The position numbers and the translations under genes were made by a program. The notes under the pieces are model-generated. The model searched no databases and was not told where the DNA came from. It worked only from the letters and a program-made list of their open reading frames with translations. A stretch of DNA of 39,498 bases from a virus. Below, one piece after another: positions 9,468 through 39,498 of the stretch; position 1 is the stretch's first letter, and each line of letters begins with the position of its first letter. The stretch is from the IMG/VR virus record IMGVR_UViG_3300031949_000096, positions 1 through 39,498 of that record. One strand, written 5' to 3'.

Positions 9468-9507
9468 ATAATACCTCTAAAACCGTGTCAAGCCCGAGTT
9501 ATCCACA
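9468..9507 (-). promoter_or_regulatory. Leftward (late?) promoter candidate with a perfect DnaA box
   Basis: The minus strand reads TGTGGATAA (9507..9499)-CTCGGGC-TTGACA (9491..9486)-12 nt-TATTAT (9473..9468). The 12-nt spacing between the hexamers is non-canonical. Confidence 0.5.
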
Positions 9508-9553
9508 CGAGTTAGAGCCATCGTTTGCCTAAAATCACCCTATTTTCAGGATA

Positions 9554-9621: not shown

Positions 9622-9807
9622 ATGCGTGTATATCATGTCAAAGTAGAGTGGCTTTATAAGGGCCGCTACCCGAAGACCTGGGAAGGTCGCGGCCAGGCGA
9701 GCACGCTGCAGGCGGCCATCGCCGCGGCGTCGCGCGACTGGAAGAAGCAGGGGCTCGCGCCCCGGGAGGTCTGCCGCCAGGCGACCGTGCGCGTCACGCT
9801 GGCTTAG
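9622..9807 (+). CDS. Small plus-strand hypothetical protein (61 aa)
   Basis: ATG inside track ORF 9601..9807; MRVYHVKVEWLYKGRYPKTWEGRGQAST... It converges on the HNH gene and overlaps its 3' end by 14 nt. Confidence 0.45.
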   Translation: MRVYHVKVEWLYKGRYPKTWEGRGQASTLQAAIAAASRDWKKQGLAPREVCRQATVRVTLA

Positions 9808-10291
9808 CCGAGTATTGGTTGCGGCCGCCGGAGAAGACATAGCTCATCTGCGACTTGGGGAGGAGCTCCAGGTTGGCGAGCTCGTTGTTGGCCGGGTTGC
9901 GGTCCCGGTGAAAGACACAATGGCCCGAGGGTATCGGGCCGTTTGCTTTCTCCCATACATACCAGTGCAGCAGCAGCCGGCGGCCGTTGACCGTGCCGCG
10001 GAGATGCCCGCCTTTGGTGAGAGTGAAGTTGATGCCGTCGACCACCTGCAGGCCTTTGAGCTTCTTGGTCCGCAGCGGGTAGCCTCGTGTATTAAAAATA
10101 TCGTAGACCGCCTGGCGCGTGCAGCCGTAGAGTTTGCCTATCGTGGCCAGCGACATCCCATCTTTATAGCAGTCGTACATCTCGGCGACTTTAAAATTAT
10201 TCTGTCGCTTCGGGTGCCGGTTGTAGCGTACTTGGTAGCCACGCTCCGGGTCCTTGTCGACGCGGGTGGGCCTTGGGGAGATGGTCCTCAT
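9794..10291 (-). CDS. HNH endonuclease with an N-terminal HTH
   Basis: 165 aa. The HNH motif reads HCVFHRDRNPANNELANLELL, and the HTH reads MSLATIGKLYGCTRQAVYDIF. Confidence 0.8.
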   Translation of the reverse strand: MRTISPRPTRVDKDPERGYQVRYNRHPKRQNNFKVAEMYDCYKDGMSLATIGKLYGCTRQAVYDIFNTRGYPLRTKKLKGLQVVDGINFTLTKGGHLRGTVNGRRLLLHWYVWEKANGPIPSGHCVFHRDRNPANNELANLELLPKSQMSYVFSGGRNQYSAKPA

Positions 10292-13342: not shown

Positions 13343-13372
13343 TGTATATCACTATCCCTATAGGGATAGCAA
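13343..13372 (-). promoter_or_regulatory. Promoter candidate whose spacer carries most of an 18-bp perfect palindrome (operator candidate)
   Basis: The minus strand reads TTGCTA (13372..13367)-18 nt-TATACA (13348..13343) with TG two nt upstream of the -10. The palindrome CTATCCCTATAGGGATAG occupies 13352..13369. Confidence 0.5.
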
Positions 13373-13375
13373 GGG

Positions 13376-13394
13376 CCCGGTGTGGATAACCGGG
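13376..13394 (-). promoter_or_regulatory. Perfect DnaA box (13381..13389) embedded in a 6-bp inverted repeat
   Basis: The plus strand reads CCCGGT-GTGGATA-ACCGGG. TGTGGATAA is the reverse complement of TTATCCACA. Confidence 0.6.
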
Positions 13395-13435
13395 AGCTCA
13401 TTGTTTTTTCAGGTATATGGCGCTACCTTCACACG

Positions 13436-17898: not shown

Positions 17899-18291
17899 TT
17901 ATGCGAAGGCCGAAGCCGGGCTAAGGTTAATAGTCGATAGAACCGCTGCCGCACCAGGACCGCCACCGCTCGGGGCCGAGGGCATAGGTGCCGGGGCGCT
18001 GCCGCCGCCCGCACCCGACTCCCCGGTCCCTTTCTCCGGCACGTCGAGCTCGACCTCCACCTTCGGGAGGCCTAGCTTCTGCCCGGCTGCCCACGCGAGC
18101 GCCCGGATGGCGTTTGCGTTGGTGCCTTTCTTGCCGATGATGAAGCGCGCATCCGCCGGGTTGCAGCGGACGGTATAGACCAGCACTCCCTCCTCGAGTT
18201 TATGCGACACCGAGACGGCACCTTCGTCCGGCACAATGGCTTTCGCCAGCGTGGTGATGAGAGCGACGATGACGAGCTCGTTGGTATCCAT
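17899..18291 (-). CDS. KH-domain RNA-binding protein, KhpA/UPF0109-like, with a Gly/Pro/Ala-rich tail
   Basis: 130 aa. LVIVALITTLAKAIVPDEGAVSVSHK..LVYTVRCNPADARFIIGKKGTNANAIRALAWAAG matches the KhpA-type KH fold, including the GxxG loop (GKKG). It is the first gene of the early leftward operon. Confidence 0.7.
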   Translation of the reverse strand: MDTNELVIVALITTLAKAIVPDEGAVSVSHKLEEGVLVYTVRCNPADARFIIGKKGTNANAIRALAWAAGQKLGLPKVEVELDVPEKGTGESGAGGGSAPAPMPSAPSGGGPGAAAVLSTINLSPASAFA

Positions 18292-18338: not shown

Positions 18339-18391
18339 TGTGGATAACTCATGCTTGACGCGCTTGACAGGTCAAGGGAGTCAAGTAAGAT
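18339..18391 (+). promoter_or_regulatory. Rightward promoter candidate with a perfect DnaA box
   Basis: TGTGGATAA (18339..18347)-CTCATGC-TTGACG (18355..18360)-CGC-TTGACA (18364..18369)-16 nt-TAAGAT (18386..18391). It lies in the divergent region between the KH gene and the plus-strand island. Confidence 0.55.
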
Positions 18392-18436: not shown

Positions 18437-18952
18437 ATGGGTAAAAAAACAGGAGCAGCTTTTGAGGTCCAGTACCGCGGGTACACCATTATTTTTAACG
18501 AGGGGGAGAAGTGGGAGACCCTGCTCAAGGGTGCGAAGCGCCCGGAGATGCACGAGAATATCAAGCGCGTGCAGGACGCCATCGACCGCTCTCTTCGTGG
18601 GGACTTCGAGCGCCTCCCGGTCTTTATCGAAAAGCGCAACGCAAACGGCTACGGCCGGAGCGGCCGCTACGAGAAGGCGACCATCACCTCCGTCGGCATC
18701 GACCGCGACGTATTTGTGCAGCGTGAGGGCCAAAAGCATACGGAGGCGCATAGCCACTACAACGGCGGCCTCTTCGTACAGAACCCTGCAAACGCCCAGC
18801 TCATCGCCGAGCTTCACGCCATCCAGGACGAGATAGAAACACTCGAGTCGAAGCGCCGCCAGGCCGCAGAAAAGTCCAGCCAAAAGGCCCGCAAGCTCCA
18901 GGTGGTCGATACCGAAAAGATAGTCGCTAAGGTCCTCGGCCCCGATGCGTAG
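18437..18952 (+). CDS. Hypothetical protein (171 aa), first gene of the rightward island
   Basis: A clean ORF with a coiled-coil C-terminal segment. I recognise no domain. Confidence 0.65.
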   Translation: MGKKTGAAFEVQYRGYTIIFNEGEKWETLLKGAKRPEMHENIKRVQDAIDRSLRGDFERLPVFIEKRNANGYGRSGRYEKATITSVGIDRDVFVQREGQKHTEAHSHYNGGLFVQNPANAQLIAELHAIQDEIETLESKRRQAAEKSSQKARKLQVVDTEKIVAKVLGPDA

Positions 18953-19093: not shown

Positions 19094-19339
19094 ATGAAAA
19101 AGAAAAAAACACTTGAGTCCCCGCGGGCGGCCGCTGCCGGCCACAAGGTCCTCCGGGCGCTGCTCAAAAACGACGGCCGCAGCTACGAAGAAATCGGCAA
19201 GGATGCCGGCATCTCGAAGCAGCGCGTCGGGCAGATAGCGAAGAGGCACGGCATCACCCGAGCACCGGCGCGCGGCGTGATGCAGGTCGCTTGCGTACAC
19301 TGCGGCCGGCAGACTCCTGCGGTGCCCACCATACGGTGA
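19094..19339 (+). CDS. HTH DNA-binding protein (81 aa), candidate transcription regulator
   Basis: RSYEEIGKDAGISKQRVGQIAKRHGI is a sigma-region-4-like or Cro-like HTH. The last 28 codons or so overlap the rusA 3' end on the opposite strand. Confidence 0.6.
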   Translation: MKKKKTLESPRAAAAGHKVLRALLKNDGRSYEEIGKDAGISKQRVGQIAKRHGITRAPARGVMQVACVHCGRQTPAVPTIR

Positions 19340-19688
19340 CCCGGATGCGCTTGTTGCTCGAGCGCACCTGCCGCAATAACACCCCCGCCACCTCGGCGGG
19401 GGTGTCGTCTTTCAGTACCCCGGCGTGGCGCAGTCCGTCCTCCACCATTTTCGCCATCGAGGAGAGGTTGAGGTTGTCGAGCGGCTTGCCCGGTATCTCG
19501 AAGAGGTACTCCACGAGCGGCAGCGGGTAGCTCGTGACCGGCGGCATCGACGTGCGCCGCACCGCCTCCCGGACCGCCAGGTAGAACGCCTGCTCGAGCG
19601 GGTATCGCTTCATCGCGTGCTTGCGGTAGAAGACGTTGGTCGAGACCTTCTCCGGGAGCTCGAGAGTGAGTTGGGGGGTCATGTGCAT
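19254..19688 (-). CDS. rusA: RusA-family Holliday junction resolvase
   Basis: 144 aa. GKPLDNLNLSSMAKMVEDGLRHAGVLKDDTPAEV matches the RusA D-x-DN...K...D...DD catalytic pattern. Confidence 0.75.
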   Translation of the reverse strand: MHMTPQLTLELPEKVSTNVFYRKHAMKRYPLEQAFYLAVREAVRRTSMPPVTSYPLPLVEYLFEIPGKPLDNLNLSSMAKMVEDGLRHAGVLKDDTPAEVAGVLLRQVRSSNKRIRVTVWWAPQESAGRSVRKRPASRRAPVLG

Positions 19689-19706
19689 ATTCTCTCTTAT
19701 ATAAAA

Positions 19707-19721
19707 CTACTATTACTATTA
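19707..19721 (-). repeat. Trinucleotide array TAA-TAG-TAA-TAG-TAG (DnaA-trio-like)
   Basis: The plus strand reads ctactattactatta. On the minus strand the array is preceded by CCCCACCCC and followed by TTTTATATAAGAGAGAAT. Confidence 0.5.
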
Positions 19722-19809
19722 GGGGTGGGGATAGCTCGGATAACTCACTTTTGCGTTGCCCTTCATATGTTTTTCAGGAAGTGCCGCTGGGGACAACGTG
19801 GGACCCGAC

Positions 19810-19829
19810 TGTGGATAAATTGTGGATAA
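19810..19829 (-). promoter_or_regulatory. Two perfect DnaA boxes in tandem, 11-bp register
   Basis: TGTGGATAA occurs at 19810..19818 and again at 19821..19829. Confidence 0.75.
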
Positions 19830-19830
19830 C

Positions 19831-19865
19831 AAAAGGGGAGCAAATGGCTATACCACTTGCTCCCC
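19831..19865 (-). terminator. Intrinsic terminator downstream of the DnaA-domain-IV gene
   Basis: The minus strand reads GGGGAGCAAGTGG-TATAG-CCATTTGCTCCCC, a 13-bp stem with one G-U pair, followed by TTTTGTT. Confidence 0.75.
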
Positions 19866-19890
19866 AGGTGTTTCACGCGAAACCCCCAGC

Positions 19891-19912
19891 TTATCCACAG
19901 GGGTTACCCACA
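19891..19912 (+). promoter_or_regulatory. Perfect DnaA box plus an 8/9 box, in the opposite orientation to the 19810 pair
   Basis: TTATCCACA at 19891..19899 and TTACCCACA at 19904..19912. They end 2 nt before the stop codon of the 19915..20247 gene. Confidence 0.7.
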
Positions 19913-19914
19913 GT

Positions 19915-20247
19915 CTAAAGCAGGCCGTGGAGCTCGTTTTTGCACCGGGTTCCTATGCCGATGGCGCGCTCGAGCAGCTCCTCGCTCGCCCGGACCTGGG
20001 CGATGCCGTTGAGCACGGTCGTGTGGTCCTTCTCGTAGAAGCGACCCATGCGGGCGGCACTGTACTGCAGCAGGGTGCTGCCGAGGTACCACAGGATAAA
20101 TCGGGCCTCCACGCGCTCCTGGAAGCGCCCAGGCACGCGCATCTCCTCGAGAGGCACTCCGCACTCCCGGGCCACTATCGACTCCAGGCGGAGGAAGCCA
20201 GGGGGCACGAACGCCGGAGAGTTGGACCGCTCCTCGGCGCCACTCAT
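19915..20247 (-). CDS. Stand-alone DnaA domain IV (DnaA-box-binding HTH) protein, 110 aa
   Basis: RVEARFILWYLGSTLLQYSAARMGRFYEKDHTTVLNGIAQVRA aligns by eye with the DnaA C-terminal domain (..ARQIAMYL...IG..FG.RDHTTVLHA..KI), including the DHTTV signature. There is no AAA+ region. The start forms an ATGA overlap with the upstream gene. Confidence 0.8.
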   Translation of the reverse strand: MSGAEERSNSPAFVPPGFLRLESIVARECGVPLEEMRVPGRFQERVEARFILWYLGSTLLQYSAARMGRFYEKDHTTVLNGIAQVRASEELLERAIGIGTRCKNELHGLL

Positions 20248-22397
20248 ACGGAGTAGCCCTGCAGGCGCTGTATGGGGCTGCCGTCGGCCCGGAGCAGCAG
20301 CATATCGCCTTTACCGAGTAACTTCTCTGCCCCCTCCTGGTCCACGATGACGATGCTCGCCGCGGCGCTCGCGGTGCGGAAGGCCACGCGCGTGGGGAAG
20401 TTCGCCTTAATCGCCGAGTCGACTATTTTGGCGATGGGGTGCTGGGTGGTGAGGATGAGGTGGATGCCCGCGGCGCGCGCCTTTTGTGCCAGCAGCAGGA
20501 TGGCCGTGCGTATCTCGCTCGAGACGTCGGTCTTTATCGTGCGGAAGCGGGTCTCACCTTTGCGCGGCCCGGAGAGATACTCCCCATCCTCGACCTCCTG
20601 CAGGTCCTCGTGGCCCTGCGCAATGAGGTCGCCATACTCGTCGATGAACACGAAGATATAGGGCAGCTTGCCGCCGGCTGCGCGGTATGCCTCGAGGTTT
20701 TTTACCTTGGCCTTTTTGAGCGTGGAGTAACGGTCCTCCATCTCGCCGACCAGGTGCTTGAGCGTTTTGTAGATGCCCATGATGTCGTCGCTGTAGTCGA
20801 CCTTGGGGTATTCCTCGAACTCCCCGAGCTCCACCTTCTTCGGGTCCAGGAGCACGAGCTCGCAGCCCGGCGTGCCGAGCAGCTGGTGGACCCACGAAGA
20901 GATGCACACCGATTTGCCGGAGCCGGTGGTGCCGGCGACCAGTGTATGCGGTCCCTGCCGCAGGTCGAGCGTTTGCATCACGCCGGAGATGTCGACGCCG
21001 ACCGGGAGCTCGAAGCCTTTGGCCTTCGGCGCTTTGCCGGGGAACGTGCGGACCTTGTTGGGCAGCTCGAAGCCCACGAGCTCGGAGTCCGGGATGGGCG
21101 CCAGGACGCGGATGCCGGTGGTGCCGGTCACTTGCTCCAGGTCCTTGGCGAACTTCTCTATACGGCTCATTTTGAGGCCTACGCCGGCCTCGAAGCGATA
21201 GAGCGTGACCGAGCCGCCGGTCACCTCACTGTGGAACTCGACCGAGAGGCCGTGCTCCGCGAGCTTCATTTTGATGCGGTCGGGGATAGTCATATTTTTA
21301 TAGTTAAGGGTAGAGCCGGAAACGAACTTGGCCGCGACCGTCTCCAGGTACTTCTTCATCGAGCCGTCCTGCTGGATACGCTTTTTGAGGAAGTCGGTGA
21401 TATTGTCGACCTTCATCGCGGCCATTTGTTTGGCGCGCTCTTCGTCGACGTCGAGCCGGTGGATGTACGCCAGGACCGAGACCTCCCGGTCAAAGATGGC
21501 CATGAGGTTCGGCACATACACTTGCTTGCCGAGGAGCGCGTCGGTCATGTCTTGGTAGAAGCGGAAGAAGAGCTCGAAGGCCAGCGGCACCTCGTCGAAC
21601 ACTATCTCGTACTCCCGGGTCTGCGGCTCCTTCGGGTCTTTGTTGGGGGTGATTTTGTGCTCCGCGAAAATCATCGAGTAGGGCGCCTCGCCAAGCTCCG
21701 CGTACACCGTCATGTAGTTGAAGATGGCCTGCAGGAGCTTGCCGCCGTCGATAGCCTCCGGGTCCGAAAACTTGGTAGTGAACTTGTGGTCTCGGATGCG
21801 GATGCGCTTGTCGCTCTTTTGCCGATACACCAGGTCGGCCACTGCTTTGAGCGGCACCGGCATCACCTTGCCGTCCACCTCGACCTTGTGCTTGAGCATT
21901 TTTTCTACCAGCAATATCTCCATCTTTGCCGGGTCGAAGTTGAGGTCCTTGAGGTAGCCGAGGAACGCGAACGCGAAGCGCTCCTCGAGCTTGGCGCGGT
22001 CCTGCGTTGTTGCGCCCCACTCGATGAGCCCATCGGAGAAGCTCGCGAGATACGCGCGGCCGGCCTCGAAGGCCAGGCGCATCGCCTCGCCATCATCGTT
22101 AGCCGGCACCGGCACCGCATCGTTGCCGCCGAAGTACGTCTGCAGGCCGAAGTGCGCCGCGCGCCCGAGCACGTTGGTGGGCGAGCTCGTCGTCTGCAGC
22201 TGGTCGCCGTTGATATTGTTGACCTTGAACATAAAGGGGTTAGTCGAAAACTTCATCCAGCTGGAGTAGCTGTAGCTCTCGAGAGGGAACCCCTGGAAGG
22301 CCGGCTTAATCTCACGCCTCGATAGTACCTTCGGGAGCGGCATCTTCGTCCGCAGCTTCGACCGCCGCGGCGCCTTTGCCTTTTTTGTTTTTGTCAT
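20244..22397 (-). CDS. Fusion protein: N-terminal RecB/Cas4-type PD-(D/E)XK nuclease plus C-terminal FtsK/SpoIIIE-type DNA translocase ATPase
   Basis: 717 aa. Nuclease motifs are GRAAHFGLQ, ADLVY, IRDHKF and QAIFNY (aa ~78-228). FtsK motifs are VTLYRFEAGVGLKMSRI..APIPDSELVGFELPN, Walker A GTTGSGKS (aa 489-496), Walker B IFVFIDEYGD, LILTTQHP and RVAFRTASAAASIVIVDQEGAEKLLGKGDML. The start overlaps the recT 3' end (86 nt, or 32 nt if Met19 is used). Confidence 0.8.
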   Translation of the reverse strand: MTKTKKAKAPRRSKLRTKMPLPKVLSRREIKPAFQGFPLESYSYSSWMKFSTNPFMFKVNNINGDQLQTTSSPTNVLGRAAHFGLQTYFGGNDAVPVPANDDGEAMRLAFEAGRAYLASFSDGLIEWGATTQDRAKLEERFAFAFLGYLKDLNFDPAKMEILLVEKMLKHKVEVDGKVMPVPLKAVADLVYRQKSDKRIRIRDHKFTTKFSDPEAIDGGKLLQAIFNYMTVYAELGEAPYSMIFAEHKITPNKDPKEPQTREYEIVFDEVPLAFELFFRFYQDMTDALLGKQVYVPNLMAIFDREVSVLAYIHRLDVDEERAKQMAAMKVDNITDFLKKRIQQDGSMKKYLETVAAKFVSGSTLNYKNMTIPDRIKMKLAEHGLSVEFHSEVTGGSVTLYRFEAGVGLKMSRIEKFAKDLEQVTGTTGIRVLAPIPDSELVGFELPNKVRTFPGKAPKAKGFELPVGVDISGVMQTLDLRQGPHTLVAGTTGSGKSVCISSWVHQLLGTPGCELVLLDPKKVELGEFEEYPKVDYSDDIMGIYKTLKHLVGEMEDRYSTLKKAKVKNLEAYRAAGGKLPYIFVFIDEYGDLIAQGHEDLQEVEDGEYLSGPRKGETRFRTIKTDVSSEIRTAILLLAQKARAAGIHLILTTQHPIAKIVDSAIKANFPTRVAFRTASAAASIVIVDQEGAEKLLGKGDMLLLRADGSPIQRLQGYSV

Positions 22398-23037
22398 CTT
22401 TTTTTAGGGCGCCCATTTTAAGACCCGATGCCTCGACCTGGGCGGGTGCTTTGTTAATGCGAGACTCCGGGACTACTTGGTGCGAGTCGAACTCTTCGGC
22501 GAGGTAGATGCCGGAGAGGTCTTCGGGAGCAGCTTTGCGCAGCGCCTGCATCTCCGCGACTTTCGCTATCATGGTGCGAGGCTTGAGCTCCCACATACTC
22601 TTGATGTAGGCGCCGTTCTTTGTGCGGCCGGCTTTAAAGTATTCCTCGAAGTAAACGGTGGCGGTGTAGCCGCCCGGGTGGCCATCTTTTTTGAAGACAG
22701 TGACATCGCACGAGACTATTGTTTTGCCATCCGGCGCCATCTCGTAGACTGGTTTGCTGGTGCCGTTGACACCGCCGCGCGCGCCGCGCTTGCGAGCGAA
22801 GTCGATGGAGGTGATGAGACTGTAGCCGGTGTCACCGAAGGGCAGCGCATACACGTCCTTTTGCAGGAAGTGCTTGAACGTAAACCCGCGGATGAGGCCC
22901 TCGAGTATGGCCTGCTTCATGACCACGTCGGTGAGACCTTTGAAGGTGGTGGCGAGGAGCGCGCGCCCGACTGCCGGGTCCGCGAGCTCGCGTTTTACCT
23001 CTTCATTGAAGAGGGCTACTTGGGATTTTTCTTCCAT
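22312..23037 (-). CDS. recT: RecT/Red-beta-superfamily single-strand annealing protein
   Basis: 241 aa. DVYALPFGDTGYSLITSIDFARKRG and MWELKPRTMIAKVAEMQALRKAAPE resemble RecT/Bet signatures. It is adjacent to a nuclease gene. Confidence 0.7.
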   Translation of the reverse strand: MEEKSQVALFNEEVKRELADPAVGRALLATTFKGLTDVVMKQAILEGLIRGFTFKHFLQKDVYALPFGDTGYSLITSIDFARKRGARGGVNGTSKPVYEMAPDGKTIVSCDVTVFKKDGHPGGYTATVYFEEYFKAGRTKNGAYIKSMWELKPRTMIAKVAEMQALRKAAPEDLSGIYLAEEFDSHQVVPESRINKAPAQVEASGLKMGALKKDDKNKKGKGAAAVEAADEDAAPEGTIEA

Positions 23038-24788: not shown

Positions 24789-27700
24789 CTATTCGCTCTG
24801 CTGCGTGAGCAAGTAGGTCACCTGCTTCTGCACCTCTTTGGTGAGGATGCCCTTCTCGACGTACTCGGTCCATAGTTTTGCCTTGGCTTCCTTGCTTCCG
24901 AGCGCATCGAACTCTTCTACTATCATCTTTGCTCGCGTGCCGTTGGCGACACCCATCTCCAGGAGCATACGGTCGGTGTAGTTGAGATTTTTCTTCTCCG
25001 CTTTGGCGATGGCGGCCACTTTTGCGGCCAGGTCCTTGTCGACGGCGTTGAGTTCGGACCAGCGCGCGGCCGCCTCCTCGGTCGGGAGATTTTTCATTTG
25101 CTGATAAGAGTCCTCCGCTTGTTGGTCGAGGATAAATCGCTCGCGGCTTTGGTCCATGAGCACGTCTTTATACTTCTCGTATTTGTCGGTGCCGGCGCCC
25201 ACCTCTTCCTCGGTGCGCGCCTTAAAGAAGCGCGAGACGATAGGCACGTCGCGCAATGCCGGCGCCTCGAGCTTGGCCGCGGCCGAGACCGTGTTGGCAG
25301 TCTTGGTCGCGGCCCGGCCGGCGCCGCCGATGAGCTGCTCGTAGGTGTAGTTGATGTCCGCCGGCGACACCTCGACGCCGATGCCGGAAAGACCGCGCGA
25401 GAAAGCGATGGCGATTTGGCCGGAGCTTGAGTCTTTGAGTGAGTCGAAATACTGGATGCTCGCCGGCGCGTGGCGGTCCCAGTCCGCTCGGATTTTTCCG
25501 CCGTGCCACCCCTGGTTTCGGCCGAGCTCCACCGGGAGGTCGATGACCGTCGGCGTGAGGGCGGAGATGAGGTCGGTACCGCCCGCTGGGTTGTAGCCCT
25601 CGATGACGGAGACCATTGCCGCGCCCATGGCGTCGACGATGCCTTTGCTCTTGCCGTTGGCTAGGTCCGAGAGCTGGTCGACCATCACTTTGATTGGCTT
25701 GAGGCCCCAGGATACTGGGATAGTTATGTAGCGCACGCCGCTGCCGTCGGCCGACGGTATCATTACCGATAACGCATTGAGGCGGTCCCAGGTGGTCACC
25801 TTGTCGCGCCAGTTGGGGTCGACGTAGTCATTCCACTCGTTGACCGCAGCCACCGGCACGGCGACCGAGAGGACCGTGGCCGCGGCGACCTTCGGGTTTT
25901 TCATGGCCATGAGCATCTTCGCCGAGCCCTGGATGCTGGCGTTGCTGAACATATAGAAAGCGTTGATGATGGGCCCGGCCTTACCTGTCTTGTTGAAGTT
26001 GACCGACGCCTCTTTGGCCAGGCGTGCTGCGCGCTCGCGCGAGGCACCATTTTTAAGCGCCTCGCGGTAGACGGAGAGGCGGGTCGAGTCCTCGAAAATA
26101 GTGTTCCAGTCGTCGACGAGCTCCACCATTTTCTTCCATGCAGCGCGCGGGTTGGAGCGGTTGAGTTTGCGGAGCGCCTCCATGTCGAGGTCTACCTGCA
26201 CCCGGGTCGAGAGGCCGAGGCCCCCGGTGGTGCCGCCGTCCTCGCGCATTTGCTTGTAGAGCATGGCGCCGGCGGAGTCTTTGCCGCGGATGAGGTCGAG
26301 CACCGCGCGCTCGTTCTCGAGGCGCAGCTCCCGGCCGACGACTTTGACCGCGCCCCTTGCGCCGAGTTCGCCCTGGGCGCCGGCATAGACCATCACCTCC
26401 TGGATATCACGGACCTTGTTGGCGAAGGCGAACTCCGGATTAAAGCGGGTCTGCAGGCCGCTGTAGAAGCGCGTAATGGCCCCTACGCCGCGTATAAGAC
26501 TCGCGAGCTTCTCCCGGCTCACCCCGCGCAGCGCGGCCGCTAGGTTGGGGTCCTCGATGCGAAGGTAGACCGGCTTGCCTTTCTCCCGGAGCACGAGCAC
26601 CTGCGGGTCGTTTATCTGCTCGAGGATGATGCGGCCCTCCTTGCCGGCGGCCTTCTCCGCGGGTGATACGAAGCCGCGGCCGATGGGCTTGGGGTGTATC
26701 TCTTTGAAGGTATCGCCGAGGATGTCCTGGTTGTCCCGGACCATCTTGAGCGTCGAGAGGTCCACGCGGTTTTTCTCCGCGCGGATGACCGCCTGCTCGT
26801 AGTTGGCCACCACGTTGTTGAGGATGTCGGCGACCTCGCGCTGGCTGCCCTTGGCCGCCTTTATGCCGGTGCTCTTTACGTCGAAGCCGCGGCCGAGTGC
26901 CGAGCCCATGTCCTCCTCGCCCTCGAAGACGCGGTTGAGTGGGATGTGGGTCTTGTATCTTGTGCGCAGCGTCTGATAGAGCTCCTCGGAGATGACCTCG
27001 CCGTCGCGCAGCACGTCGAGCGTGCGGTTGTTAAATTGCTGTACGTCGTCGGCTATGCGCATCACCGCGGCGCCATGCTTGCTTCCCTCTATCTGCGCCT
27101 TTGCCGCGCGGGCCTCCGCGGTAGTGATGCCGGCGGCGCCTTCGCCGATAGCAGCATTGCGCTCCGGCGCGTGCCGGGCAATGAGGTAACGGTTGACCTC
27201 GTCGGTGAGCTGCTTGTCGGAGAGCCCGGTCTCTTCGGCCAGGCGCACGATGTCGCGGTCGATGTTGCGCGCGGCATCCTTCGCTTCCTCGAGGCGATAG
27301 CCTACCCGGCCATGGAAGAGAACCTCCGCCTGGTAGGGGTCGGAGGCATCGCTGATTTTGATGTTGGGATTGTCGACGAGCTGCTTGACGCGGAGCATAT
27401 CGTCCTGCACTTGCTCGCGCATCCAGTTCCAGGCGTTGCCGACCTTGTGGCGGAAGTTATTAAAGAGAGGCTGCTTGCTCGGGTCCTTGGGACCGGCTGG
27501 GGGTATCGAGCTCTCCACTTCGGAGCGCATGGTAGCATCAGTAGTACCGTCGAGGCGCTTAGAAAATGACTCACCAGACTGCAAAACACCACGGAGCCCT
27601 GGCTCTTTTAGCGCTTCTTTTCCTAGTTTTTTTCCTTGGCTACTATTCGGGAGTGGACGGGTCGCGTCCTCACCCGGAGCGCCCGGAGGGGCGTCCTTCG

Positions 27701-29498
27701 CTTGAGCGCTAGGTGCTACTTCTTCTTGCGCTTTTGCTGGTAGTCCTTCTGCTCCTTCGCGTTGGAGTCCATTTTTTGCAGGTGCGTCGGACTTCCCCAG
27801 GAACCCTTCGGCTGTTTTGCGGGAGATGGAGCCTTCGGAGAGGGCCCTTGAGACGCGGGACTGGAGTTGTTTTTTGAGCTCGTCATTAGACCCAGTATAC
27901 CCCTTTTCCTTGAGAAAGGCAAGGGGGTCGGCCACCGGCTTCGCGAAGTCGCCGGAGTTGTCTATGAGTGAAAAATTGACACGCGGGTCGTCGGCATACT
28001 TGGCCAGGAGCTCGGCAAACACCTCCGCGGACCCCTGGTGAGACTTGATGTGGTAGTCGACCGGGAGCGTGCGGCCGCTGCCGAGCTCGTCCTCCATGCG
28101 CGTGGCGCGGTTGAGCGCGTTGTCGAGCGCCTTTTCTATATCGTTGTATACATAGCCCACCTGCACGTCGAAGCCGTTGTCGAGTGCCTTGCCGATTTGG
28201 TTGGTCGCCGCGTTTTTGTTGGCGAGGTTGCCGTCGAAGACGATGGGGAACTCGTCGAGGTCCGTGCCGAGCGCGCGCAGTGCCGTGCTCTTGCCGGCGC
28301 CGGTGCCGCCGGCCGAAAAGAAGACCGTGTTATTGCCGACCCCCTGCTTGGTGGTGAGGAGCTCGTCGTAGACGCGGTTGGCCAGGTAGCCGGAGGGCGC
28401 TTGCACGCCGTTTGAAAGTGAGCGGTCCGCCTGGTACGCCGGGAAGAGCTCCTTGGCCTCGTCGGCCGAGACCACGTTGCCGTTTTTTTCGATATACTCC
28501 TGGACCAGCTTGGGCTGGTTGAACTCGATGGCCATGGCGGCATCATCCTCGATAGCGCGCAGCTCCGGGGAGAGCTCCGGGAGGCGGGCCACCGGCGAGG
28601 AGCCGTTGCGCGCAGCCTCCGCCAGGATTTTCATAACCTCCTCCTCGTCCTTGGTGGCGGCAATGCGCACGGCCGCGTCGTCGATGACGTCCTGCGCCAT
28701 CTTCGGGAACTCCTTGCGCAGCGTGCCTTTGATAGCATCCTCGCCGCCCTCTGCGGCGAGCTTGATGGCGGTCCTGCGTATCGGCCCGGTCATGCCGAGG
28801 GTCGCGAAGTCGACGACCGAAAGAGCGGCGTCGAGGTTTTCAAAAAAGCCGGAGCCGCGGATGGCCGCCTTCTCGACGTCGTTGAGTTTGAGCGCCTCGA
28901 CCGCCTTGGTGCGCGCGGTGGAGCTCGGGATAGTGTCGGCGACGGAGATGGCGGTGGCGCGGTCCGGGTCGATGCCCGCCTCTAGTAGGGAGTCATACCG
29001 CTCGGTCACTTTTTCCTCGCGCGGCTTGAGCGTGGACCCGCCGAAGGGGAGTATATCGAGCGGCCGCGCGCCGCCCGGAGAGATGGGGTTGAGCGCGGTG
29101 CGCTGCAGCTGGTCGCCCTGCTCGCCGAGGAAGCCCGAGACGGTGCGGCCGATGCTGCCGCCAGTTATCTCGTCGAGCTTTTCGAGCCCGGACTGGAAGA
29201 TGCTTTTTTTCTCCTTGGGTGCGGCCGAGATGGTCGCCGGCTCGAGCTCGCGGAGCGGTTGGTTGAGCTTGTCTTCTTTGGGTGCGATGACCGCGGGCGT
29301 GTACCCGAACTTCTCCCGGAGAGAGTCGGTGATAGGGGTCGGACTCTTTGCTTGCGATGCAGCAGAATAGGCGGCGACCTTGGGAGTCACCGCCAGAGTG
29401 GAGCCGGGCATCGTCGTGCTCATGGGCAGCAGAAGAGGCGCACTGGTGGCCGTTGGCGCCACCCCGAAACGCTTGCGGAGTTCTGCTGCAGTAGCCAT
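24789..29498 (-). CDS. Giant polyvalent virion/internal (ejection?) protein, 1,569 aa
   Basis: The largest ORF, lying between the internal-protein and lysis genes. It has a zeta-toxin-like P-loop domain (aa ~340-535). The C-terminal ~900 aa include YKTHIPLNRVFEG, which resembles the PLxRFG domain of phage polyvalent proteins. Confidence 0.7.
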   Translation of the reverse strand: MATAAELRKRFGVAPTATSAPLLLPMSTTMPGSTLAVTPKVAAYSAASQAKSPTPITDSLREKFGYTPAVIAPKEDKLNQPLRELEPATISAAPKEKKSIFQSGLEKLDEITGGSIGRTVSGFLGEQGDQLQRTALNPISPGGARPLDILPFGGSTLKPREEKVTERYDSLLEAGIDPDRATAISVADTIPSSTARTKAVEALKLNDVEKAAIRGSGFFENLDAALSVVDFATLGMTGPIRRTAIKLAAEGGEDAIKGTLRKEFPKMAQDVIDDAAVRIAATKDEEEVMKILAEAARNGSSPVARLPELSPELRAIEDDAAMAIEFNQPKLVQEYIEKNGNVVSADEAKELFPAYQADRSLSNGVQAPSGYLANRVYDELLTTKQGVGNNTVFFSAGGTGAGKSTALRALGTDLDEFPIVFDGNLANKNAATNQIGKALDNGFDVQVGYVYNDIEKALDNALNRATRMEDELGSGRTLPVDYHIKSHQGSAEVFAELLAKYADDPRVNFSLIDNSGDFAKPVADPLAFLKEKGYTGSNDELKKQLQSRVSRALSEGSISRKTAEGFLGKSDAPAKNGLQREGAEGLPAKAQEEVAPSAQAKDAPPGAPGEDATRPLPNSSQGKKLGKEALKEPGLRGVLQSGESFSKRLDGTTDATMRSEVESSIPPAGPKDPSKQPLFNNFRHKVGNAWNWMREQVQDDMLRVKQLVDNPNIKISDASDPYQAEVLFHGRVGYRLEEAKDAARNIDRDIVRLAEETGLSDKQLTDEVNRYLIARHAPERNAAIGEGAAGITTAEARAAKAQIEGSKHGAAVMRIADDVQQFNNRTLDVLRDGEVISEELYQTLRTRYKTHIPLNRVFEGEEDMGSALGRGFDVKSTGIKAAKGSQREVADILNNVVANYEQAVIRAEKNRVDLSTLKMVRDNQDILGDTFKEIHPKPIGRGFVSPAEKAAGKEGRIILEQINDPQVLVLREKGKPVYLRIEDPNLAAALRGVSREKLASLIRGVGAITRFYSGLQTRFNPEFAFANKVRDIQEVMVYAGAQGELGARGAVKVVGRELRLENERAVLDLIRGKDSAGAMLYKQMREDGGTTGGLGLSTRVQVDLDMEALRKLNRSNPRAAWKKMVELVDDWNTIFEDSTRLSVYREALKNGASRERAARLAKEASVNFNKTGKAGPIINAFYMFSNASIQGSAKMLMAMKNPKVAAATVLSVAVPVAAVNEWNDYVDPNWRDKVTTWDRLNALSVMIPSADGSGVRYITIPVSWGLKPIKVMVDQLSDLANGKSKGIVDAMGAAMVSVIEGYNPAGGTDLISALTPTVIDLPVELGRNQGWHGGKIRADWDRHAPASIQYFDSLKDSSSGQIAIAFSRGLSGIGVEVSPADINYTYEQLIGGAGRAATKTANTVSAAAKLEAPALRDVPIVSRFFKARTEEEVGAGTDKYEKYKDVLMDQSRERFILDQQAEDSYQQMKNLPTEEAAARWSELNAVDKDLAAKVAAIAKAEKKNLNYTDRMLLEMGVANGTRAKMIVEEFDALGSKEAKAKLWTEYVEKGILTKEVQKQVTYLLTQQSE
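27894..28481 (-). other. Zeta-toxin-like P-loop kinase domain within the 1,569-aa protein
   Basis: TVFFSAGGTGAGKSTALRALG (Walker A at 28287..28313), then IVFDGNLANK, then DVQVGYVYNDIEKALDNALNRATRM. The order and spacing look like zeta/AAA_33-type kinases. Confidence 0.6.
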
Positions 29499-38948: not shown

Positions 38949-39498
38949 CTAGCGGACTGCTGTGTCGTCGAAGTGGTAGTGCGCGCGGGCTCGAAGGTCG
39001 TAGCCTCGGTTAGTCGAGGTTGCGGTCTCGCAAGCGCCGGTGGTGCATACGCCGTTCGTCGCGCGGTTGATGTACGCGATGAGCGACCATCCTGCCGGGA
39101 GGCGGATGGAGCCTTGGCCACCTTGTGCGGTTGTCCCGACCGAGTTGGTCGTGGTAGCCGTCGTGGAGGTTGCCCAGGTGCCTACTACGAGCTGGTACTT
39201 GTCGGCAGCGATGGCGGTGTAGTCGTGTGAGTTCGGCACCTCCGTGGTGGAGGTAGCGAAGAGTCTCACGTTGACGGTCGAGGACGCAGTGCGGGTGCCG
39301 TCGGCGTTGGCCTTGAGCTCGAGCTCTGCATAATCGACATACATATCCTGGCTGGTCGAGTTGGTGAGGAGCACCGCCTGGTCGGCCGAGGCGCCGATGT
39401 CTCGCACTGCCCAGTTCTCCGCTACCGCGTAGGGAGTAGGGCCGGATGAGACGCCGTTGGGGTACCAGTCGCGGGTCTCCTGGACTCCGCTGACAGTC
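38949..39498 (-). CDS. 3' part of the junction-spanning gene (continues from 225..1 across the circle)
   Basis: The frame is open from 39498 down to the stop at 38949. It overlaps track ORF 38949..39407, and 39372..39498 duplicates 1..127. Confidence 0.8.
   Translation of the reverse strand, partial: TVSGVQETRDWYPNGVSSGPTPYAVAENWAVRDIGASADQAVLLTNSTSQDMYVDYAELELKANADGTRTASSTVNVRLFATSTTEVPNSHDYTAIAADKYQLVVGTWATSTTATTTNSVGTTAQGGQGSIRLPAGWSLIAYINRATNGVCTTGACETATSTNRGYDLRARAHYHFDDTAVR
39372..39498. repeat. Terminal direct repeat, copy 2 (identical to 1..127)
   Basis: Same 127-bp string as the window start. This indicates a circular or terminally redundant complete genome with a unique length of 39,371 bp. 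Confidence 0.97.

Follow-up and report, generated by a model that had tools for sequence, protein, structure and literature searches.

The window analysed here is the full 39,498-nt IMG/VR record IMGVR_UViG_3300031949_000096 (positions 1 to 39,498), and the subject of this analysis is a 110-residue protein encoded on its minus strand that corresponds to domain IV, the DNA-binding domain, of the bacterial replication initiator DnaA. The gene follows those of a RecT-family protein and a nuclease::FtsK fusion and precedes a 226-bp spacer that carries several DnaA boxes and, before the next gene, a candidate origin-like element (Table 1). Because the first 127 bases recur exactly at the end (1-127 = 39372-39498), the window is a closed, complete circular phage genome of ~39.4 kb. 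It has a GC content of 61% and a coding share of 89% (11% non-coding), the minus strand carries almost every gene, and matches to a major head protein, a large terminase, and a tail protein mark it as a tailed phage. None of the open reading frames (ORFs) of at least 300 amino acids and of the small non-structural and early-region ORFs gave a match to an initiator, helicase, primase, polymerase, or integrase; many ORFs are without any match, and an unrecognisable phage initiator may still be encoded.

The 110-residue protein is a member of the Pfam family Bac_DnaA_C (PF08299), as the original prediction from the bare sequence had proposed. The profile matches with an E-value of 6.5e-12 and 45.7 bits, above the curated cut-off of 31.5, and residues 23-85 cover profile positions 6-69 of 69, which is essentially the whole domain. 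The NCBIfam profile of full-length DnaA (TIGR00362) reaches a score of only 32.6 against a cut-off of 343.9 and is matched at positions 352-419 of 437. With Pfam and NCBIfam profiles no part of DnaA domains I-III is found in the protein. Only ~20 residues, modelled as disordered, precede domain IV and leave no domain I, and the AAA+ domain III is absent from a protein of 110 residues whose upstream frame belongs to an FtsK-family gene. The protein is thus no DnaA initiator. A single-sequence search of solved structures leads to the DNA-binding domain of Mycobacterium tuberculosis DnaA (3.4e-5), and the family profile matches the Escherichia coli domain (1J1V) at 9.6e-14. The AlphaFold 2 (AF2) model, built on 33 relatives, has a mean predicted local distance difference test score (pLDDT) of 92.4 and a predicted template-modelling score (pTM) of 0.83. 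Its 12 best Foldseek matches in the PDB are all DnaA, headed by the DNA complexes 3PVP and 1J1V (TM 0.68-0.80, root-mean-square deviation ~2.0 Å), and apart from DnaA no PDB structure is matched with E <0.5.

The DNA-contacting surface is largely retained. In DnaA the bases and grooves are contacted by R399, P423, D433, H434, T435, and H439 and the backbone by R407 (PMC9638019). When E. coli domain IV (from NC_000913) is added to the 33-member family alignment, identical residues are found for R399 (R41), R407 (R49), D433 (D74), H434 (H75), and T435 (T76), and the position of R399 is an arginine in 30 of the 33 members and that of H434 a histidine in all 33; across the family all five positions vary little or not at all. 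The same contact residues were reportedly listed by Fujikawa in 2003. The protein hence shares with domain IV of E. coli (1J1V) and M. tuberculosis (3PVP/3PVV) the Pfam family, the fold, the basic-loop arginine, and the D-H-T-T motif of the recognition helix. It differs from them in being free-standing, in the substitutions of H439 with asparagine (N80) and of P423 with alanine (A65), and in a subfamily-specific N-terminal peptide: the first ~15 residues are modelled as disordered with low confidence and include a conserved S-P-x-F-V-P, and P15, F18, and E22 are conserved within the subfamily. The gene has a GC content at third codon positions of 0.86, typical of real genes in this genome, and a ratio of nonsynonymous to synonymous substitutions (dN/dS) of 0.16 at a dS of 0.58 in comparison with its relative in assembly L001 (85% identical). 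By profile, model, and substitution pattern, the protein is a selected, functional DNA-binding domain of the DnaA-box type with nothing else attached, so that the predicted domain IV without an AAA+ motor holds in every test applied. Domain IV of DnaA alone achieves box-sequence-specific binding (PMC5835720), and the phage protein probably binds TTATCCACA boxes too, as its gene co-occurs and is co-conserved with perfect copies of them.

The spacer begins with a box pair whose first member, TTACCCACA with one mismatch (19904-19912), lies 2 nt from the stop codon (19915-19917), exactly where a pair had been predicted, and whose second, a perfect TTATCCACA (19891-19899), lies four bases further. 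The pair reads TGTGGATAA-CCCC-TGTGGATAA in the related assemblies L001, L014, L018, and L019 and is degenerate in L015, L021, and L107. The near-palindrome that follows suggests a site for another dimeric protein. Next comes a hairpin whose stem pairing is preserved by compensatory changes in L018 and L019, and this predicted terminator would end the RecT-FtsK-DnaA_C transcription unit and part the operon from the remaining spacer. The second, co-oriented box pair has the form TTATCCACA-AT-TTGTCCACA in L018. In total, the spacer holds three perfect boxes, one with a single mismatch, and others with two or three mismatches, and thus a cluster under a threshold of at least three boxes. Real dnaA genes in a genome sample have two to eight perfect boxes within 400 bp, a range into which the spacer falls. 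In a six-way alignment the best-conserved parts of the spacer are the first box pair and the element at its far end, and the layout of both is kept in relatives with saturated synonymous sites (dS >1.4). AT-richness was discarded as a mark unique to the spacer, since its 40-bp patch at 19681 (GC 0.23) ranks only third or fourth in the genome.

The element at the far end of the spacer resembles the basal unwinding system (BUS) of bacterial chromosome origins, which in Bacillus subtilis consists of DnaA boxes 6/7 and the adjoining DnaA-trios (PMC6669920, PMC8287927, PMC10721633). The BUS rule calls for a box with at most two mismatches and, no more than 16 bp away, three or more NAN trios, usually with a tandem box and a GC spacer of ~4 bp (PMC8287927). 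The rule was applied by script to the window and its relatives, with random sequences of the same composition as null, and the polarity was set from the B. subtilis scaffold oligonucleotides 5'-TTATCCACA-A-ATCCACA-GGCC-CTACTATTACTTCTACTA (PMC8287927 supplement). The window conforms in the correct polarity with seven trios behind a 3-nt spacer, and the homologous spot has seven trios in L014 and L019, five in L015, four in L021, and three in L107; the null yields 0.20 sites with at least five trios per 39.5 kb. The run at 19702-19722 has a period of three (CTA ATA GTA ATA GTA GTT TTA) and is followed by a ribosome-binding site and the next gene, and its complement supplies the trios 3'-GAT TAT CAT TAT CAT CAA AAT-5'. 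Compared with the consensus 3'-[G/A]A[T/A]-5', the central adenine and the third position fit in all seven trios and the first position in two (GAT and AAT). Tabulated bacterial BUSs with TAT or CAT trios exist, and box-box-CGGG-GATTATGATAATAAT and CGG-GATTATCATCAC are similar arrangements. The order box, 0-1 nt, box, 3-4 nt of GC, first trio 3'-GAT equals that of the B. subtilis scaffold and the tabulated bacterial BUSs. As in oriC, two co-oriented tandem boxes are joined by a GC spacer of 3-4 nt to at least three NAN trios on the strand with 5'-TGTGGATAA, the first trio is 3'-GAT, AT-rich DNA follows, and the element lies just downstream of a dnaA-type gene. The differences are that the phage element stands on a 39-kb phage, that its proximal boxes carry two or three mismatches, and that trios 2-6 start with T or C; the same bases could also act as a promoter. 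In the (TAR)n run at 19702-19722, trinucleotides with a central adenine are present in either strand, as 3'-GAT/AAT in the minus and 3'-TAT/CAT in the plus strand.

Table 1. Genes and sequence elements around the stand-alone DnaA domain IV gene and at the isolated DnaA boxes of the window.
Feature	Position	Strand	Description
Stand-alone DnaA domain IV gene	19915..20247	-	110 aa, ATG start; Pfam, AF2, Foldseek, residue mapping, dN/dS
PD-(D/E)XK nuclease::FtsK alpha-beta fusion	20244..22397	-	717 aa, no gamma domain; Pfam PDDEXK_1, FtsK_alpha, FtsK_SpoIIIE
RecT-family single-strand annealing protein (SSAP)	22312..23037	-	first of conserved triad; Pfam RecT 1.6e-12; PHROG SSAP families
RusA-like Holliday-junction resolvase	19254..19688	-	first gene past the spacer; PHROG 34 and 1682, ~1e-5
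Box pair directly past the stop	19891..19912	-	minus-strand reading TGTGGGTAA-CCCC-TGTGGATAA
14-bp near-palindrome	19870..19883	.	GTTTCGCGTGAAAC (minus reading); kept in L001, L014, L018
Predicted intrinsic-terminator hairpin	19835..19865	-	14 pairs, then TTTTG; terminator scan
Two co-oriented perfect boxes, 2 bp apart	19810..19829	-	TTATCCACA-AT-TTATCCACA
CCTGAAAAA motif	19770..19778	-	in conserved block CTTCCTGAAAAACATATGAAGGGCAACGC, kept in L018, L019
BUS-like element	19702..19743	-	TTATCCgag 19735-19743, cTATCCcCA 19726-19734, CCC, TA run 19702-19722
Isolated perfect box	18339..18347	-	divergent promoter region between KH-domain gene and ORF 18437-18952 (+)
Isolated perfect box	13381..13389	-	CCTGAAAAA 15 nt 5'; 18-bp perfect palindrome CTATCCCTATAGGGATAG 3'
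Isolated perfect box	9499..9507	+	TTGACA 7 nt downstream in minus-strand sense; CCTGAAAAT 33 nt further 5'

The canonical box is over-represented in the phage genome. The six perfect copies of TTATCCACA that had been counted before (9499+, 13381-, 18339-, 19810-, 19821-, and 19891+) are confirmed and compare with 0.11 expected from base composition. Ten boxes have at most one mismatch, against 2.7 in shuffled sequences, and none of 100 shuffles reaches ten. All six perfect boxes are intergenic (P ~1.5e-4, counting four independent loci). Three of them stand apart from the spacer. The box at 18339 is accompanied by a sigma-70-like promoter, TTGACA-16-TAAGAT, at 18364-18391 (+), and a box occupies the equivalent position in L015 (12572, perfect) and L019 (12425, one mismatch). 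The boxes at 9499 and 13381 lie 7-8 nt upstream of TTGACA and TTGCTA hexamers, respectively, and a promoter scan of both regions gave no canonical promoter. The box-linked promoters of the original prediction are borne out in part, with a canonical promoter in the scan only at box 18339. The genome has exactly three copies of the motif CCTGAAAAW (0.27 expected), at 9542-9550, 13405-13413, and 19770-19778, all of them intergenic and, in minus-strand sense, followed 12-33 nt downstream by a box. The isolated sites suggest that box occupancy may affect transcription as well.

The gene and its surroundings form a conserved module. On the strand of the gene the order is RecT, nuclease::FtsK, DnaA_C, a spacer of 230-250 bp, and a next gene, which is RusA-like here, and this order holds down to 28% identity of the DnaA_C protein on contigs of 35-40 kb. 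The start codon of DnaA_C and the stop codon of the 717-residue nuclease::FtsK gene overlap in ATGA, as had been read from the sequence (the plus strand reads tcat at 20244-20247). A DnaA_C gene for 100-114 residues with the same FtsK overlap recurs in other samples, where at least six independent assemblies contain it (L001, L014, L015/L016, L018, L019/L020, L021, and L107). The translational coupling is kept in L015, L019, L021, and L107, and RecT synteny extends over L015, L019, L021, L102, and L104. Among 80 kept IMG/VR relatives, 71 are stand-alone proteins of less than 200 residues. Boxes directly behind the DnaA_C stop are found in the window and in L001, L014, L015/16, L018, L019/20, L021, and L107, and in L015, L019, and L021 boxes with at most one mismatch are 3-11 times as frequent as expected and concentrated within 400 bp of the gene. 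In L102 and L104 another small gene takes the slot behind PDDEXK::FtsK, encoding a 91-residue protein with an SSB-like ...DIPF tail and a 62-residue protein, respectively; these contigs have no box within 400 bp of the slot and no perfect box in 22 kb. As most viral DnaA_C genes lack nearby canonical boxes and L102 and L104 have none near the slot, gene and box cluster are, on sequence comparison, a lineage-specific module whose parts co-vary in presence. Two generalisations were rejected in the course of the comparison: L102 and L104 contradict the notion that DnaA_C always follows a phage FtsK, and the boxless majority contradicts the notion that all viral DnaA_C proteins adjoin box clusters. 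Among the relatives compared, the pairing of domain-IV-only ORFs with box clusters is borne out for this lineage and not for most other viral DnaA_C proteins.

The wider family is large and mostly viral. A HMMER scan of 1.84 billion representatives gives 324 matches, and the best 150 are nearly all 90-200 residues long and not full-length DnaA; the nearest relatives of the phage protein are likewise short, mostly of viral or metagenomic origin, and not cellular DnaA. No PHROG family matches the 110-residue protein, and only two of 33 relatives match any, weakly. UniProt and BFVD list dozens of proteins of 90-200 residues automatically named [quoted passage not shown]. A full-text literature search, whose coverage excludes most subscription journals, returned no paper that deals with a domain-IV-only protein of a phage or reports DnaA-trios from a phage origin. 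To that extent the search agrees with the original prediction, to which no characterised phage system built on a truncated DnaA was known; its implied lack of precedent needs qualifying, since automatically annotated proteins of this kind are numerous and the analogous regulators GafA and GafY have been characterised.

Three roles had been put forward for the protein, namely a competitor that displaces host DnaA, a transcription factor, and a regulator of the phage origin, and the last would gain most, because the adjoining spacer has the BUS architecture of oriC and is conserved with the gene. The mechanism favoured here starts from a phage gene that gives rise to a monomeric, motor-less paralogue of DnaA, which would recognise the 9-bp box of the host initiator. 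It would act mainly at the conserved 226-bp spacer, read as the phage replication origin, with a design of the oriC type: high-affinity boxes in both orientations, two weak tandem boxes, a GC spacer, trios, and an AT-rich stretch. To fire this origin the phage would use the full-length DnaA and the replisome of its host, as the trio and melting step needs domain III and no phage initiator, helicase, or polymerase is found. Oligomerisation, trio binding, and helicase recruitment depend on DnaA domains that are missing here (PMC8287927, PMC10721633). With the same DNA specificity and no motor, the phage protein would act as a competitor that occupies boxes and can bind but not oligomerise, melt DNA, or recruit helicase. 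Such competition may regulate or stop DnaA-dependent initiation on the phage DNA and extend to host oriC and the box-linked phage promoters. Co-transcription with RecT and nuclease::FtsK would fit a hand-over from origin-dependent to recombination-dependent replication. That host DnaA fires the phage origin and the phage protein gates it by box competition, probably extending to host oriC, is put forward tentatively, as a reading with somewhat less than an even chance. The broader scheme is more doubtful still: phages of ~35-40 kb without initiator or helicase of their own would carry a miniature chromosome-type origin fired by host DnaA, and a dominant-negative domain-IV-only protein would control this origin, silence host oriC, and time the switch to replication driven by RecT and nuclease-FtsK.

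Several points weigh against the proposed host-fired origin and its competitor. Box binding, origin activity, and the negative sign and timing of the effect are all matters that we infer, and a pure competitor would shut down the origin of the phage itself as well, so that timing or cooperativity would be needed. Within the trio run, 3'-GAT occurs only at the box-proximal trio and the others, bar AAT, start with T or C, whereas B. subtilis DnaA favours a captured 3'-GA dinucleotide; the consensus-perfect trios 5'-TAATAGTAATAGTAG were rejected, since their strand polarity relative to the boxes is wrong when judged by the B. subtilis scaffold oligonucleotides. The TA-rich run lies 20-30 nt upstream of the start of the next gene and could be its -10 region or 5' untranslated region, with the weak boxes over the -35, and the AT-rich patch has counterparts elsewhere in the genome. 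Most other viral stand-alone DnaA_C proteins are without canonical boxes nearby, and the DnaA_C family as a whole need not be origin-linked. Finally, neither a cultured relative nor a host turned up in the phage records and reference genomes searched: tblastn of the 110-residue protein and megablast of the 10 kb around its gene gave no match in 50,697 phage records, and a scan of 185,579 species reference genomes with the close DnaA_C subfamily found none. A looser pattern on the species genomes retrieved mostly genuine full-length dnaA and six short proteins, and no prophage or host for this lineage, and no contig matched the window's own proteins exactly.

Three other functions have been considered that are compatible with the favoured model. 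The protein could be a phage transcription factor of the GafY kind whose operator happens to equal a DnaA box, and the spacer a regulated promoter or terminator in place of an origin, for which there is a limited but appreciable chance. It would account for the intergenic position of all four box loci, for the shared order motif-box-gene on the minus strand at the three loci with an upstream CCTGAAAAW, for the conserved position of box 18339 (in L015 and L019) beside its promoter, and for the hexamers that follow boxes 9499 and 13381 at 7-8 nt. It also has precedents in the DnaA-like N-terminal domain of GafA and in stand-alone GafY, which contacts sigma-70, and it agrees with the many viral DnaA_C proteins that have no adjoining box cluster. 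What it leaves unexplained is the conservation of BUS geometry over six lineages (weak boxes, GC spacer, and TA run) and the need for six to seven boxes in two orientations. Perfect consensus boxes would be bound by host DnaA and make a poor private operator, only one isolated box has a canonical promoter in the scan, and a GafZ-like partner is not adjacent, the nearest sigma70_r4-like ORF (19094-19339, +) being sub-threshold and on the other strand. Improbable, though in keeping with the gene order, is a role of DnaA_C as targeting subunit of nuclease::FtsK, which it would load or orient at the box cluster, for example to initiate recombination-dependent replication together with RecT and RusA. 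In cellular FtsK a C-terminal gamma winged-helix domain provides the orientation, and the idea arises because the phage FtsK stops exactly where the beta domain ends and the coupled next gene encodes a DNA-binding domain. PF09397 is missing from all phage PDDEXK::FtsK homologues (~620-660 residues, on contigs of 35-47 kb) and present in the cellular FtsK matches, the phage enzyme ends in ...RLQGYSV, which we equate with the close of the beta domain in E. coli FtsK, both the ATGA overlap and the order of the genes are kept down to 28% protein identity, and the box pairs have defined orientations and flank the terminator. On the other hand, a fusion of FtsK and DnaA_C is absent among the best 120 homologues of a concatenated query, unrelated small proteins take the same slot in L102 and L104, and most stand-alone viral DnaA_C genes are not beside FtsK.

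A similarly small chance is given to a positive origin-recognition protein, which could bend DNA, occupy the high-affinity boxes and thereby leave the weak boxes and trios to host DnaA, or recruit a host factor through S-P-x-F-V-P. Its gene adjoins the putative origin as dnaA does oriC in many bacteria, a prophage of Brevundimonas (L088) has a stand-alone DnaA_C in a replication module beside the single-stranded DNA-binding protein (SSB), and P15, F18, and E22 at the N-terminus are conserved in the subfamily. Domains I and III, which are needed for helicase recruitment and oligomerisation, are absent, any partner would be hypothetical, and the N-terminal 15 residues are of low confidence in the AF2 model. 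The remaining explanation sees a functionless artefact or decaying remnant, the 3' end of dnaA captured from a host or mis-assembled. In bacteria oriC is often placed beside dnaA, and a dnaA 3' end with boxes, trios, and an AT-rich region does resemble a captured dnaA-oriC junction. On the sequence data this explanation is rejected as extremely improbable, including the assembly error that had been named as a possible source of a broken dnaA: the start codon overlaps an FtsK-family gene and not the rest of dnaA, the gene recurs at similar length in the independent assemblies, the best 150 HMMER matches are nearly all short, the assembly closes through its 127-bp overlap, and the dN/dS of 0.16 (at dS 0.58) is that of a gene under purifying selection.

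Compared by published description, the closest characterised functional analogues are GafA and GafY. The N-terminal domain of GafA and the small stand-alone GafY are direct activators of gene-transfer-agent genes (PMC6363796, PMC9638019, PMC11150451). As in the phage protein, a DnaA-like helix-turn-helix has been freed from the AAA+ motor and is used by a phage-derived element. The likeness of GafA to DnaA is weak (at the level of HHpred) and E8 stands in place of R399, whereas the phage protein passes the Pfam threshold and keeps R399. GafY works with GafZ, IHF, and sigma-70 on sites that are not DnaA boxes, while the phage sites are consensus DnaA boxes. A GafZ-like or sigma-region-4 partner is neither fused nor adjacent to the phage gene, whose neighbours are FtsK and the RusA-like gene, and the 81-residue helix-turn-helix ORF nearby is sub-threshold. 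Other mobile elements likewise exploit or interfere with the DnaA system. Bacteriophage lambda uses DnaA at pR. According to the published reports, YqaH (skin element of B. subtilis) and YfdR (cryptic prophage of E. coli) bind the DnaA protein without mimicry of its DNA-binding domain, and phage T5 has a DnaA-box array at iss and, as far as the preprint tells, no DnaA-like gene; as far as these sources describe them, none of YqaH, YfdR, T5, and lambda pairs a domain-IV-only gene with an oriC-like element. Hda is a DnaA-related paralogue made of the AAA+ domain only that regulates initiation by acting on DnaA-ATP through the clamp. It keeps domain III, whereas the phage protein keeps only domain IV and could act only through DNA.

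The main interest lies in the fact that a truncated initiator and an oriC-like element are paired and conserved together. Almost all bacteria have DnaA and its 9-bp box. If the favoured mechanism holds, the protein would be a natural, minimal, and diffusible DnaA-box competitor that could serve as a ready-made tool and as a starting point for inhibiting initiation in different species. The 226-bp BUS-like element of the phage would then be a compact and independently evolved test bed for the cooperation of boxes, spacer, and trios, and a further phage strategy would be added in which an oriC mimic borrows the host initiator and a truncated paralogue regulates it. Even if the protein is only a transcription factor, the DNA-binding domain of DnaA would have been recruited repeatedly by mobile elements and GafY and GafA would no longer be isolated; this outcome would also give a function to the many ORFs of viral metagenomes that are automatically named “DnaA C-terminal”.

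The neighbouring genes add some details. The true start of the RusA-like gene is probably the ATG at 19682, as judged by comparing the N-terminus with L014. In cultured phages the FtsK fusion finds matches only for its motor half (Mycobacterium and Bacillus phages). The ORF at 19094-19339 (+) encodes an 81-residue helix-turn-helix protein, scores 21.9 with Sigma70_r4 (Pfam cut-off 24.1), and is convergent with the RusA-like gene, whose 3' end it overlaps; at the corresponding place in L015 lies a 55-residue ORF with a weak Sigma70_r4 match. The 91-residue protein of L102 (11821-12096) lies in a prophage-like region of a 171-kb contig, and its ...EDIPF end resembles the C-terminal tip of SSB that recruits host replication proteins.

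Further observations concern the isolated boxes and the rest of the genome. CCTGAAAAW may be regarded as a second recurrent control element. The palindrome at ~13352-13369, CTATCCCTA|TAGGGATAG, lies between the TTGCTA and ATATAC/TATACA hexamers, and its half-sites resemble degenerate DnaA boxes, so that it could be an operator. The first gene past the promoter region of box 18339 (17899-18291, -) encodes a KH-domain (RNA-binding) protein of the KhpA/KhpB type and is kept in L015 and L019. The prophage replication module of L088 (4305-7066), from the cultured alphaproteobacterium Brevundimonas bullata, has SSB beside a stand-alone DnaA_C protein of 144 residues and also holds a 227-residue ORF that looks GcrA-like by eye and further ORFs. 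The database protein P0010 (482 residues) contains three tandem DnaA_C-like stretches. Upstream of the RecT module, and kept there in L015 and L019, a polyvalent protein of 1569 residues with Zeta_toxin and LPD38 domains is encoded (24789-29498, -). At 9794-10291 (-) an HNH_3 endonuclease with an N-terminal helix-turn-helix is found, which is probably a homing-type or packaging-associated nuclease.

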